From positions 704,001 through 768,000 of the forward strand of contig CBDBOV010000005.1 of the NCBI GenBank assembly GCA_965208575.1: DNA of 64,000 nucleotides, given 5' to 3'. Under the pieces are notes generated by a model. That model worked only from the letters and a program-made list of their open reading frames with translations. It was not told the origin of the DNA and ran no database searches. Both the position numbers and the translations under genes were made by a program. Within the stretch, counting starts at the first letter, position 1; each line of letters opens with the position of its first letter. Of this stretch, positions 21,134 through 25,133 are shown in pieces. The DNA comes from Spirochaetia bacterium (GTDB lineage: Bacteria > Spirochaetota > Spirochaetia > SZUA-6 > Bin103).

Positions 21134-23377
21134 ATGACGGCGGTGTTGCTGCAGCAGCTCGCGCAGCCGGTCACCAGTCTGCCCGGCGTGGGTCCGGCCG
21201 GGGGGCGCCGCCTCGCCGAGTTGGGAGCCGCGACCGTGGGTGAGTTGCTGGAGCACTTCCCGCGCGCCTGGGAGGACCGCCGCCGGATCGCACCGCTGCA
21301 GGCGCTCGCGGAAGGCCGCCCGGTGGTGGTGCGCGCCCGGGTCGCGGCGCATCGGCGATTCGGCCCGCGCGCCCGGCACCTGCGCATCGACCTCACCGAC
21401 CAGGCGCCGGCCGCCCGCGCCCCGGATGGCGCCGGGCAGCGGCGCGGGCGCGCCCCCGAACCGGGACCGCGCGCGGTGCCCGCAGCGGCGCTGCTCTGCT
21501 TCGGGCGCAACTACCTGGCACGTTCGCTGCCGGTCGGGGCGGCGGTGACCGTGGCCGCCACGTTTCATCGCCGCGGCGGGACATGGGAGGCCGGCAGCTT
21601 CGAGTTGCTGCGCGACGATGACACCGCGAATGCCGGGCGCATCGTCCCGATCTACCCGCTGAGCGAGGGAGTGCGCGCAGCCATGCTGCGCCGCGCCATG
21701 CTCGCCGCGTGCGCCCGCCTTGCCGGCATGGCCACGCCGTGGGACGGCTACTGCCGCCGCCGCGGATTGCCGCCGGTGGCCGCGGCGGTGCGCGCACTCC
21801 ACTTCCCGCAGCGCGCCGGCGACATCGAACCTGCCCGCACCGCCGTCGCATACGCGGAGCTGCTGCAACTGCAGCACGCGCTGCGGCGCCGCCGCGCGCC
21901 GCGGCGCGCGGCGCGGCGCGCGTGCGGTGCGCTGCCGGCGCGCATCGCCGGGCGGCTGCCGTTTGCGCTGACCGGCGACCAGGACGCGGCGCTGCACGCG
22001 ATCGGCGCCGGACTGCGCGGTGCGCTGCCGAGTGCCCGGCTGCTGCAGGGCGACGTGGGCTGCGGCAAGACGCTGGTCGCCCTGCTCGCCGCGGCCTGGG
22101 TGGTGGAAGCGGGCGAGCAGGTCGCGTTCGTGGTGCCCACCGAACTGCTGGCGCGTCAGCACCTGAACAGCGCGCGCCGTATTCTCGCACCGGCGGGGAT
22201 CACGGTGGCGCTGCTGACCGGCGCCGGTGCGGTACGCGGCGCGCAGGCGGTGCCGGGCGGCGTGCAGGCGGTGCCGGGCGGCGTGCAGGCGGTGCCGGGC
22301 GGCGTGCAGGCACTGCCGCGCGCGGCGCTGCTGGCCGACCTGCGCCGCGGCGCCATCGACGTGCTGTTCGGCACGCACGCGCTGCTGCAGGAAGGGGTGG
22401 CGTTCGCCGCCCTCGGCCTGGTGGTCATCGACGAGCAGCATCGCTTCGGGGTCTTGCAGCGGCGCCACCTGCTGCAACGCGCACCGCGCGCCGATCTGCT
22501 GCTGATGACCGCCACGCCGATTCCACGATCGCTCGCGATGACCGTGTATGGCGACCTTGAGCGCACGGTGATCCGCGCCCTGCCGCCGGGCCGGCTGCCG
22601 GTGCGCACCCACCTCGTGCGGCTGGCCAACATAGGCAAGGTGTACGACCGGGTGCGCGGCGAGCTCGCGACCGGAGGCCAGGTGTACGTGGTCGCGCCGC
22701 GCATCGGCGCTCCCGCGCCATCGGCACGGGACGCGCCGCCGGCACGGGACGCGCTGCCGGCACGGGACGCGCTGCCGGCACGGGACGCGCTGCCGGCCGC
22801 GCCGGCGGCCGGCGGCCGGTCCGCTCCGCTGCCCGATGTCGGCGCCGCCGAGTCCCTGTTCGCCGCGCTGCGGGACGAGGTGTTCCCGGAGTTCGCGTCC
22901 GGCCTGATCCACGGCGCCATGAACGAGCTCGACAAGCACGCGGTAATGGAGCAGTTCCGGCGTGGCGCGCTGTCGATCCTGGTGGCGACCACGGTAGTGG
23001 AGGTGGGGGTGGACGTGGAGGGTGCCACCGGCATCGTGGTGTTCGGCGCCGAGCGCTTCGGCCTCGCGACGCTGCACCAGCTTCGCGGCCGCGTCGGCCG
23101 TGGGCCGCGGCAGGGGTATGCCTACCTGGTGTACGGCGAACCGTTGAGCGACTCGGGCAGCGAACGCCTGCGGGCCATGCGGGAGAGCGGCGACGGATTC
23201 GCGATCGCCGAGCGCGACCTCGCCCTGCGCGGGCCGGGAACGCTTCTCGGGCTGCGCCAGGCGGGCCTGCCGGAGCTGCGGGTGGCCGAGCTGCCGCGCG
23301 ACCTGCAGCTCGCTTTGCAAGCAAGGGCTGACATAGGCCCGGTGGAACAGGCACAGGACTGTGCGCCATGTCCGTAA
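21134..23377 (+). CDS. recG: ATP-dependent DNA helicase RecG
   Basis: LLQGDVGCGKT, PTELLARQH, GTHAL, DEQHRFG, MTATPIPRSL, ATTVVEVGVDV, QLRGRVGRG, DLALRGPG. Confidence 0.95.
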   Translation: MTAVLLQQLAQPVTSLPGVGPAGGRRLAELGAATVGELLEHFPRAWEDRRRIAPLQALAEGRPVVVRARVAAHRRFGPRARHLRIDLTDQAPAARAPDGAGQRRGRAPEPGPRAVPAAALLCFGRNYLARSLPVGAAVTVAATFHRRGGTWEAGSFELLRDDDTANAGRIVPIYPLSEGVRAAMLRRAMLAACARLAGMATPWDGYCRRRGLPPVAAAVRALHFPQRAGDIEPARTAVAYAELLQLQHALRRRRAPRRAARRACGALPARIAGRLPFALTGDQDAALHAIGAGLRGALPSARLLQGDVGCGKTLVALLAAAWVVEAGEQVAFVVPTELLARQHLNSARRILAPAGITVALLTGAGAVRGAQAVPGGVQAVPGGVQAVPGGVQALPRAALLADLRRGAIDVLFGTHALLQEGVAFAALGLVVIDEQHRFGVLQRRHLLQRAPRADLLLMTATPIPRSLAMTVYGDLERTVIRALPPGRLPVRTHLVRLANIGKVYDRVRGELATGGQVYVVAPRIGAPAPSARDAPPARDALPARDALPARDALPAAPAAGGRSAPLPDVGAAESLFAALRDEVFPEFASGLIHGAMNELDKHAVMEQFRRGALSILVATTVVEVGVDVEGATGIVVFGAERFGLATLHQLRGRVGRGPRQGYAYLVYGEPLSDSGSERLRAMRESGDGFAIAERDLALRGPGTLLGLRQAGLPELRVAELPRDLQLALQARADIGPVEQAQDCAPCP
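22243..22318 (+). repeat. In-frame 21-bp tandem repeat in recG
   Basis: gcaggcggtgccgggcggcgt x3 exact plus a partial fourth copy (QAVPGGV). Confidence 0.95.
22722..22793 (+). repeat. In-frame 18-bp tandem repeat in recG
   Basis: cggcacgggacgcgctgc x4, first copy with one mismatch (ARDALP). Confidence 0.95.
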
Positions 23378-23649
23378 CCGGTACCCACTACCGCGGCCAT
23401 CAAGCACGCGCCGACATTGGCCCGGCGGAACAGGCACACGACTCTGCTCCATGTCCGTAACCGGTACCCACTACCGCGGCCATCAAGCACGCGCCGACAT
23501 AGGCCCGGCGGAACAGGCACAGGACTGTGCTCCATGTCCATGACCGGCATCCAATACCGCGGCCATCACGCCCGCGCTGACATCGGCCGGGCGCAGCGCT
23601 CATCCGAGGTGGCGCCGTGCGCGTGACCGGCGGGCGCTACCGCGGCCGC
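23318..23649 (+). repeat. Four tandem 83-bp copies of the recG-3'/rsmD-5' junction
   Basis: Units start at 23318, 23401, 23484 and 23567; copies 1 and 2 differ at 8 of 83 positions; copy 4 is the most divergent and carries the real rsmD start. Confidence 0.92.
23368..23626 (+). other. Three overlapping 30-aa mini-ORFs (23368-23460, 23451-23543, 23534-23626) linking recG to rsmD
   Basis: Each start codon overlaps the previous ORF's end by 10 nt; peptides MSVTGTHYRGHQARADIGPAEQAHDSAPCP, MSVTGTHYRGHQARADIGPAEQAQDCAPCP, MSMTGIQYRGHHARADIGRAQRSSEVAPCA; translation not demonstrated. Confidence 0.55.
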
Positions 23650-24192
23650 CGGCTGCAGGTGCCGCCCCGCGACATCCGTCCGGCGACCGACCGCATGCGC
23701 GAGGCGCTGTTCAACGTGCTCGCGGCGCGTGGCGTGGTGCTCGAAGGGTGCCGTTTCCTGGACCTGTTCAGCGGCACCGGGATCATGGCGGTGGAGGCTG
23801 CGTCGCGCGGCGCGGCGGTGGTCGACCTGGTGGAGCGCGATCCGCGCAAGCGCCCCTACCTGCAGCGCAACACCAGCTTCGTCGCCGCGCGCGTGGCCAT
23901 TCACGTGACGCCGTGCGAGCGGTATCTGGCGCGCGCCCGGCGCGACGCAGCCGCCGGCTGGGACCTGGTGTTTGCTGATCCGCCCTATGCCTACCGCCGG
24001 AAGGCGGACCTGCTGGCGTCCGTGGCCGCCTGCGCGGGCCTGCGCGCCGGTGCCCTGGTGGTCGTGCACACGCCGGCCGGCGAGGTGCTGCCGGTGCCGC
24101 CGCGGCTGGCCTGTGTCGACCGGCGCCGGTATGGCGGCGCCGCGCTGGCCTTGTTCTCGGTGGCGGATGAGGCGGAATGCGGCGGCCCCTGA
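23617..24192 (+). CDS. rsmD: 16S rRNA m2G966 methyltransferase
   Basis: MRVTGGRYRGRRL, RPATDRMREALFN, LDLFSGTG, EAASRGA, FADPPY. Confidence 0.94.
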   Translation: MRVTGGRYRGRRLQVPPRDIRPATDRMREALFNVLAARGVVLEGCRFLDLFSGTGIMAVEAASRGAAVVDLVERDPRKRPYLQRNTSFVAARVAIHVTPCERYLARARRDAAAGWDLVFADPPYAYRRKADLLASVAACAGLRAGALVVVHTPAGEVLPVPPRLACVDRRRYGGAALALFSVADEAECGGP

Positions 24193-24235
24193 GCGGCGTC
24201 CGTGCCGCCGGTGGTGGAAATTTGCCCCCGCGGCG

Positions 24236-24318: not shown

Positions 24319-24391
24319 GCCTCTGTAGCTCAGTTGGTAGAGCACCACCATGGTAAGGTGGGGGTCACCGGTTCAAGTCCGGTCGGGGGCT
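24319..24391 (+). tRNA. tRNA-Thr(GGT)
   Basis: Cloverleaf: acceptor gcctctg/cgggggc, D-arm gctc/gagc, anticodon stem ccacc/ggtgg with loop atGGTaa, T-loop ttcaagt; CCA not encoded. Confidence 0.95.
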
Positions 24392-24953: not shown

Positions 24954-25133
24954 GTGAAGCGAATCGTTCAGTTTTTTCGCGAGAGTTACGCTGAGCTGCG
25001 CAAGGTGTCGTGGCCGAGCCGTGAGGAGGTTGGCAACTCAACCAGGATCGTTCTGATTTCGGTGGCGCTCATTGCCTTGGCGCTGGGATTGGTGGACTTC
25101 GTCTTCTTTCAGGCGATCGACCTGATCTTTTAG
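24954..25133 (+). CDS. secE: Preprotein translocase subunit SecE (59 aa; absent from ORF track)
   Basis: Translated by hand: MKRIVQFFRESYAELRKVSWPSREEVGNSTRIVLISVALIALALGLVDFVFFQAIDLIF; EL.KV.WP motif; GAGGAG RBS. Confidence 0.93.
   Translation: MKRIVQFFRESYAELRKVSWPSREEVGNSTRIVLISVALIALALGLVDFVFFQAIDLIF

Follow-up and report, generated by a model that had tools for sequence, protein, structure and literature searches.

In the genome of a Spirochaetia bacterium (G000; 6.5 Mb in 6 contigs), the junction of the genes recG and rsmD has been multiplied into four head-to-tail units of 83 base pairs (bp) that lie across the overlap of the recG stop with the rsmD start (positions 23318-23649 of the window, which is the whole stretch of 64,000 nucleotides (nt) analysed, G000:C5:704001-768000). 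The array is real and not an assembly artefact, because mismatch-free contigs of a public sequencing run tile it and a sister species, assembled independently, possesses a homologous array. We regard it as probably a tolerated by-product, namely a minisatellite of variable copy number across a gene junction, in which the relay of small open reading frames (ORFs) that connects the two genes is incidental.

The array and its copy-number alleles

Tandem Repeats Finder reports the array at 23318-23593 with a period of 83, 3.3 copies, 89% matches and a score of 426; a second row with a period of 166 extends to 23647 and represents the diverged fourth unit. Units 1-3 are 88-90% identical among each other and 64-66% identical to unit 4. 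The order of reading frames is recG, three ORFs of 30 amino acids (aa) and rsmD, with a start/stop overlap of 10 nt at all four joints, so that neighbouring ORFs show the structure of coupled pairs, co-oriented with overlapping stop and start. With its period and score, and with contigs that skip exactly 83 and 166 bases, the array equally qualifies as a bacterial minisatellite or variable number tandem repeat (VNTR). A first-pass annotation of the DNA had described a quadruplicated recG/rsmD junction with three 30-aa mini-ORFs and the same overlap at four joints. Tandem Repeats Finder, the ORF list and the alignment of the units confirm the quadruplication, the ORF list gives 10 nt for each joint, and the names of the flanking genes are borne out by Pfam domains and by a score above the cut-off of TIGR00095. 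The components of the array, all on the + strand, are the following:

23318-23400, +, repeat unit 1, 83 bp, with the RecG tail, ATG at 23368, TAA at 23375-23377 and 11 RsmD-like codons
23401-23483, +, repeat unit 2, 83 bp, 90% identical to unit 1 and missing in the three-unit allele of run X2
23484-23566, +, repeat unit 3, 83 bp, with the stop altered from TAA to TGA
23567-23649, +, repeat unit 4, with the native-type junction GTGCGCGTGA, as in single-copy relatives
23368-23460, +, mini-ORF 1, 30 aa MSVTGTHYRGHQARADIGPAEQAHDSAPCP, ATG start and TAA stop, overlapping the recG stop and the mini-ORF 2 start by 10 nt each
23451-23543, +, mini-ORF 2, 30 aa, ATG start and TGA stop, from frame translation; the last 30 codons of a 60-aa ORF that begins with GTG at 23361
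23534-23626, +, mini-ORF 3, 30 aa, ATG start and TGA stop, the TGA overlapping the region of the rsmD GTG

Copy-number alleles have been read from public sequencing runs. Five mismatch-free contigs of run X1 together cover 22900-24200 with all unit-specific stretches, none of them spanning the whole array. Run X2 contains a contig of 575 nt with 0 mismatches that skips exactly 83 bases and thus has three units, and unit-2-specific sequence is nearly uncovered; run X3 contains a contig of 930 nt with 10 mismatches that skips 166 bases (two units), and 23340-23471 is uncovered. These alleles are read from k-mer contigs, for which mis-joins are not wholly excludable, and the missing unit-specific cover in X2 and X3 speaks against a mis-join. 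A more distant relative (87% identity) in X1 and X2 skips 206 bases with one base between, which would leave one full and one truncated unit. Strain alleles that differ by whole units (4, 3 and 2) are ordinary minisatellite behaviour. That an assembler inflated or invented the copy number might be suspected as no single contig spans the whole array and k-mer contigs can mis-join repeats. This is nevertheless extremely improbable, considering the mismatch-free X1 contigs over each unit-specific stretch, the homologous array in the independent assembly of the sister species and the mutual differences of the units, which are hence neither collapsed nor expanded copies.

The runs that contain the stretch are mostly labelled sponge metagenomes, and the host genus is an uncultured, probably sponge-associated one of the Spirochaetia. 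Among the 21 runs listed as containing the stretch, none is an RNA run. A scan of metagenomes with RsmD identified 69 loci with one close relative (82% identity, similar to genome G007) and no further alleles, and the scan of the genome collection did not find further carriers of the array.

Search of the three mini-ORFs against Pfam gave no family match, and the Rfam scan of the array found no family. Equally, 0 promoter-like sites and no terminator have been predicted within the array; one terminator-like site is located inside rsmD, which is no more than in shuffled sequences. The predicted RNA fold of the array is unexceptional (z -0.81). An RNA element at this position has been rejected on these results. 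BLAST of the 332-bp array against its own genome recovers one place, the array itself, so that the unit is local sequence and not a dispersed element.

Origin, genome-wide class and flanking genes

Of the 10 other genomes of the genus, 9 allowed the recG/rsmD junction to be read; G002 was left out as the gene is situated at a contig end. In 8 of these 9 relatives the junction is single-copy: the 10-nt overlap recurs as GTGCGCGTAA or GTGCGCGTGA in G001, G007 and G008, and in G003, G004, G005, G009 and G010 rsmD starts a few bases after the stop. Since single-copy relatives share the junction type of unit 4, unit 4 is the ancestral junction, and units 1-3 with ATGTCCGTAA are derived copies. Within the genome collection, G006 is the closest relative (RsmD 92% identical; synonymous divergence (dS) of rsmD 0.13, non-synonymous divergence (dN) 0.04). 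When two units were used as query, the unit was found in G006 only among the 10 other genomes of the genus, besides one 37-nt match at chance level elsewhere in G007. As the unit is confined to G006 among these relatives and has a single place in the genome of G000, the array goes back to a local duplication in the ancestor shared by G000 and G006 and is not an inserted element. With regard to its age, the array is absent in G001 at an rsmD dS of 0.39. In the independent assembly of G006, composed of 180 contigs, the array consists of units of 84 and 82 bp and one unit with an in-frame deletion of 39 nt. The chain is closed, from recG via 30 aa and 17 aa to rsmD, so that, in line with the intact chain that the earlier proposal expects of relatives, the sister species retains it despite indels.

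A genome-wide scan for tandem duplications across gene junctions, as the first-pass annotation had recommended, has identified ten other arrays that form mini-ORF chains. Tandem Repeats Finder was run on the whole G000 genome, with genes called by a simple codon-usage caller that had been checked on the window. The 643 non-overlapping arrays show period peaks at 18-24 bp and 72-86 bp, with 112 arrays at 21 bp, 59 at 18 bp and 56 at 24 bp; 58 arrays have periods of 72-89 bp, 30 of 42-71 bp and 3 of 90-125 bp. Among the arrays of 36-125 bp that are neither of the clustered regularly interspaced short palindromic repeat (CRISPR) type nor a multiple of three in period (non-3n), 15 of 23 fall into 79-86 bp. 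None of the 20 non-3n arrays of 70-90 bp is located inside a gene; 12 are positioned at the boundary of a gene, and the intergenic ones number 8, of which four belong to one CRISPR array.

The flanks of the junction arrays have been named by Pfam. Four pairs of ATP-binding cassette (ABC) permease genes (BPD_transp_1 followed by OppC_N/BPD_transp_1) contain 4, 2, 1 and 1 mini-ORFs of 28-29 aa with joints of the type ATGACTGA, and two pairs of ABC ATPase genes contain 2 and 1 mini-ORFs with ATGA joints. Two mini-ORFs that overlap the next start by 14 nt are found at pheS/pheT, two with ATGCGTAG joints at a gene of the MFS family and one at a NUDIX gene, and a DppB-like permease gene is preceded by one 31-aa ORF that overlaps the true start. 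The units at these other junctions are copies of their own flanking genes. No clear chain is seen at three more arrays (82, 80 and 73 bp), which are intergenic. Where arrays with periods that are multiples of three (3n) sit on a boundary, the duplicated part is mostly a gene's 3' end including the stop. About a dozen such loci in one genome argue for a general mutational process combined with tolerance rather than for a device specific to rsmD.

The arrays of the class have been born at different times, at an rsmD dS from 0.13 to at least 0.56, and persist. G006 possesses 6 of the 8 arrays checked, some with another copy number. At pheS/pheT it has 2 units versus 3 in G000; the first ATPase array (83 bp) has 4.4 units versus 2.4, with all four mini-ORFs intact; the second ATPase array (86 bp) has 1.9 units and the DppB array (80 bp) 2.0 units. 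Besides the recG/rsmD array, at least one permease array is present as well, and the MFS and NUDIX arrays are those of the eight that are not present in G006. At recG/rsmD, at pheS/pheT and at the DppB-like gene, neither G001 nor G007 has more than a single junction, and the second ATPase pair is likewise unduplicated in G007. Arrays of 82 bp with the same unit boundary occur at permease genes at 4 loci in G001 and 2 in G007. One permease array of G007 has nine mini-ORFs, three of which are 83-bp units closed via an alternative ATGA stop. The exact-motif pattern is found in 4 of 61 genomes, all of this genus; as the motif may differ outside the genus, its absence there says little.

A number of observations accompany this survey. 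At the G001 permease locus L236 (G001:C1:4646630-4649721), the downstream OppC-like frame ends after 103 codons with unrelated sequence, so that this gene is possibly disrupted. In the 3n arrays C2:245563-245911 (81 bp), C4:474277-474441 (81 bp) and C6:418787-418889 (36 bp), the 3' end with its stop has been duplicated, leaving unread tail copies downstream. Half-length arrays of 41 and 40 bp (C6:907750-907843 and C6:894153-894226) are located at permease junctions of another subfamily, the upstream genes of which end with ...DPRVRYE*; in C6:907750-907843 the mini-ORF chain is partial only. A CRISPR-like array (G000:C4:1137672-1141859) has a period of 74 with a 37-nt repeat starting with GCTTCAATGAGGCC and spacers of about 37 nt. 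Furthermore, paired arrays of 72 bp and 84 bp are situated about 1.3-1.5 kb apart at at least 7 loci (for example C1:363258/364566, C2:503171/504654 and C3:127045/128628). The codon-usage caller finds no gene at these loci, and the pairs may represent a multi-copy element or a family of repeat-protein genes of atypical composition.

The genes and the motif that flank the chain are the following:

21134-23377, +, recG, from the ORF list, Pfam, NCBIfam and the codon-usage gene caller
23606-23611, +, GAGGTG, Shine-Dalgarno-like, 5 nt before the rsmD GTG, read from the sequence
23617-24192, +, rsmD, GTG start, 16S rRNA m2G966 methyltransferase (PF03602, E 2.9e-36; TIGR00095)

The start of recG at 21134 is the choice of the codon-usage caller within a frame that is open from 20999, and its final 20 codons (23318 onward; stop TAA, end 23377) fall within repeat unit 1. 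The gene product contains the Pfam domains RecG_wedge, DEAD, Helicase_C and RecG_dom3_C and matches the NCBIfam RecG models with an E of 9e-184, yet below the RecG equivalog cut-offs. Two in-frame tandem repeats are found within recG, one of 21 bp in 4.1 copies (22236-22322; AVPGGVQ) and one of 18 bp in 4.7 copies (22714-22797; PARDAL). Being located inside or between the helicase domains, these internal repeats may be the cause of the scores below the equivalog cut-offs. RsmD scores 121.9 bits against NCBIfam TIGR00095, above the equivalog cut-off of 117.5. The GAGGTG motif upstream of rsmD we take to be Shine-Dalgarno-like in view of the anti-Shine-Dalgarno sequence; units 1-3 have just AGGA, 9 nt before their ATG (for example 23355-23358). 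As rsmD retains its own motif, it may not depend on the relay. Downstream of rsmD, a tRNA (24319-24391; Rfam, 64.9 bits) is followed by a short ORF similar to ribosomal protein L33 (24455-24646) and a secE-like ORF (24954-25133), both named from their translations only.

Geometry of the relay, selection and competing explanations

Each unit contributes one start in frame p and one stop in frame p+1, and as 83 is 2 mod 3, a frame opened by the start of unit n runs to the stop of unit n+1. The geometry is thus as the first-pass annotation had claimed, with each RsmD-like start reading into the next RecG-like tail on account of the unit length. Because this geometry arises automatically, the relay needs no selection, and gain or loss of whole units preserves the chain. 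As the frame shifts by 2 per unit, any frame hits a junction stop within three units, such that single indels are tolerated.

We propose that an 83-bp tandem duplication over the recG stop and the rsmD start would have occurred in the ancestor of the two sister species. With a duplication across the junction, the upstream gene is still completed in the first unit and the downstream gene still starts intact in the last, and each extra start opens a 30-codon frame that ends on the stop of the next unit, which overlaps the next start. Duplications of this kind would survive as their extra frames close at the next start and are not read on, out of phase, into the downstream gene. Along the chain, ribosomes would probably terminate and re-initiate or start afresh at the weak AGGA motifs, by which rsmD expression might be little disturbed. 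Unequal recombination or slippage would alter the number of whole units with the chain always preserved. Tandem duplications of 79-86 bp at the starts and junctions of genes form a genome-wide class in this clade, to which the locus belongs.

Signs of selection on the units have been looked for in the substitution pattern. Units 1-3 are separated by 13 substitutions, 5 of which lie in unit 1 upstream of its ATG, in the real recG tail. In the part that corresponds to the RecG tail, 6 of 10 changes are at third codon positions (binomial P ~0.08 versus one third), and in the RsmD-like head 1 of 5 changed bases in the read frame is synonymous (counted codon-wise and including two in the 10-nt overlap). 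Between copies 1 and 2, a recount gives 8 differences with 5 of them synonymous, in agreement with the earlier figure. The unit divergence of G000 from G006 is about 20%, versus an rsmD dS of 0.13, and the units hence evolve at or above the neutral rate. Since unit divergence is above the rsmD dS, the peptides of the mini-ORFs are not conserved. The divergence of units 1-3 from unit 4 is about 35% and falls mainly in the middle of the unit; this is more than one would expect at the apparent age of the array, with an rsmD dS of 0.13 to G006 and no array in G001 at 0.39.

The unit length itself has been assessed in a phase test, in which the point of closure of the extra frame was determined for each length class in 11 start-bearing non-3n arrays, with one 63-bp array (at an M50 peptidase gene; anchor motif not found) left out. 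In 8 of 11 arrays, extra frames close within 35 nt of the real start in both non-3n classes, which renders them uninformative; the ATGACTGA junction has stops in both frames. In the three informative arrays, recG/rsmD, pheS/pheT and MFS, closure in the one class occurs at +5 to +11 and in the other at +247 to +379. With a 3n length, the extra frame would continue in phase into the gene in 10 of 11 arrays; as the arrays were chosen as non-3n, the comparison of 3n with non-3n lengths is unusable as a test.

Several observations weigh against the array being a tolerated by-product. All three informative arrays have the closing length class (P = 0.125), a result which points weakly in the direction that is also expected from a filter of tolerance. 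In the G006 array, a +1 and a -1 indel within one mini-ORF cancel, and the third change is the in-frame deletion of 39 nt. The altered stop in unit 3, TAA to TGA, is still a stop, and in the derived units GTG has become ATG and TGA has become TAA with both signals kept, although the events are few. Permease arrays persist across an rsmD dS of 0.39-0.56, which is long for neutral bacterial DNA, and the sharp preference for lengths of 79-86 bp is not accounted for by tolerance alone. The cancelling indels of G006 were considered as proof of selection and rejected as such, as one indel alone fuses mini-ORFs 1 and 2 into a frame that still ends on the stop overlapping rsmD.

From the maintenance of the chain, the first-pass annotation had deduced a relay under selection, in which coupled mini-ORFs would serve the hand-over from recG to rsmD and the number of units might heritably tune rsmD expression. 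We consider this unlikely, even though it accommodates the intact chain in two species despite indels, the 4, 3 and 2 units of different strains and the frame-closing length class in all informative arrays; in addition, the single-copy G001 has no obvious ribosome-binding motif before rsmD, where coupling may matter. The observation that starts and stops are kept through exchanges of TAA with TGA and ATG with GTG stands and is suggestive, although it amounts to a few events. On the other hand, the geometry restores itself so that changes by whole units cannot break the chain, rsmD of G000 has its own GAGGTG motif, the statistics are weak (P ~0.08 and 0.125) and unit divergence is above dS. The same structure at about a dozen unrelated junctions fits a general process better. 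The case for selection maintaining the relay is therefore weak. As for the proposed rheostat, the variation in copy number between strains is real and makes a dosage effect of unit number on rsmD conceivable. That the mini-ORFs encode functional peptides with histidine and cysteine residues, the other suggestion made at first, is very unlikely. In its favour, the frames are open and have start codons and weak AGGA motifs, a C-x-x-C motif is present in mini-ORF 2 and in the RecG tail, and the mini-ORFs have two histidines. The first cysteine has, however, become serine in mini-ORF 1 (the tail of copy 2) and in G006, by which the pair is lost; half of the first mini-ORF of G006 is read out of the usual frame, and only 17 aa remain of the second. 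No Pfam family is matched, and divergence between the species exceeds dS.

A further explanation addresses the origin of the array and is compatible with a tolerated by-product: a duplication process specific for a length of about 82 bp, for example a template switch guided by a protein or a structure over about eight helical turns, with selection filtering the location. It would explain the second period peak at 72-86 bp among the 643 arrays, the 15 of 23 non-CRISPR non-3n arrays at 79-86 bp and the variation of the offset between unit boundary and start codon from locus to locus at constant length. We give it little credence nonetheless: no mechanism for it is known to us, the four permease arrays share one origin, which makes the counts not independent, and many of the 72-bp and 84-bp arrays may belong to one multi-copy element. 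By-eye inspection of the boundaries found no clear microhomology, and Ku is present in 10 of 11 genomes of the genus irrespective of arrays. The Ku homologue of G000 (G000:C5:579317-579862; PF02735, 151.8 bits) suggests that these spirochaetes may perform non-homologous end joining. Ku as marker of a repair route that makes the duplications has been rejected as it does not track the arrays, and multiples of the helical repeat (about 10.4 bp) have been dropped as an explanation of the periods as 79, 80, 85 and 86 do not fit. Equally doubtful is the most far-reaching combination, in which a process specific for about 82 bp would create junction minisatellites that act as heritable dials on rsmD, pheT and many subunits of peptide transporters.

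Known systems and meaning

The first-pass annotation knew of no described example for this arrangement, a statement that does not stand. The closest described analogue are the interspersed repetitive units of mycobacteria (MIRUs), which, according to a 2025 review of translational coupling, insert at start codons with the ORF of the repeat coupled to the gene at -4 nt (PMC12548453, citing Supply et al. 1997); coupling has been proposed in the same review to make MIRU insertion harmless (PMC12548453). Both systems consist of short tandem units of tens of bp between co-oriented genes, with ORF ends that overlap the neighbouring stops and starts, and copy number varies between strains in both. 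The genes and unit ORFs of the array are indeed co-oriented and overlap by 10 nt (8 and 4 nt at other arrays), compared with -4 in MIRUs, and the units vary in number with 4, 3 and 2 in X1, X2 and X3 and 2 full units plus 1 truncated unit in G006. In contrast to MIRUs, which are one dispersed, sequence-related family regarded as mobile, the spirochaete units have been copied from their own flanking genes, and the array occurs at 1 place in its own genome. The host here is a spirochaete. By analogy, the array can be said to work like a MIRU, but it is not one.

The array can equally be compared with translational coupling by termination and re-initiation, as outlined in the same review (PMC12548453). 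The 10-nt overlap of the relatives, GTGCGCGTAA or GTGCGCGTGA, is repeated at every joint of the array; coupling normally involves two full genes, whereas here up to three, and elsewhere nine, non-conserved mini-ORFs are placed in between. A literature search within one library found no description of locally derived junction duplications that form chains of ORFs.

Long-period tandem repeats were reportedly described in Ehrlichia ruminantium by Collins et al. in 2005. They are said to resemble the spirochaete arrays in being numerous, locally generated and variable in copy number with a preferred long period, and to be non-coding; they differ in a period of about 140-150 bp versus about 82 bp in the spirochaete. 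A mean period of 138.7 bp is given for the E. ruminantium repeats in a table of Tandem Repeats Finder results (PMC3287509).

The recG/rsmD array is thus neither unique nor without precedent; its interest lies in the genome-wide class, in how arrays last from one species to the next and in the favoured length of about 82 bp. Non-triplet tandem duplications can be tolerated in a compact bacterial genome, as the class shows, and they survive only where genes meet and only if the frame of the extra start closes at the next start. Unrelated junctions with one to nine mini-ORFs in between amount to a natural series for tests of termination-reinitiation relays. For annotation, junction arrays give rise to spurious small genes and alternative starts. 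Furthermore, the idea that repeats are rendered harmless through coupling, which concerned a mobile element of mycobacteria, is extended to another phylum and to repeats that are self-templated, and the question is raised why one clade makes duplications of about 82 bp. If the arrays did act as dials, they would constitute a genome-wide system of self-templated junction minisatellites that is convergent with MIRUs.

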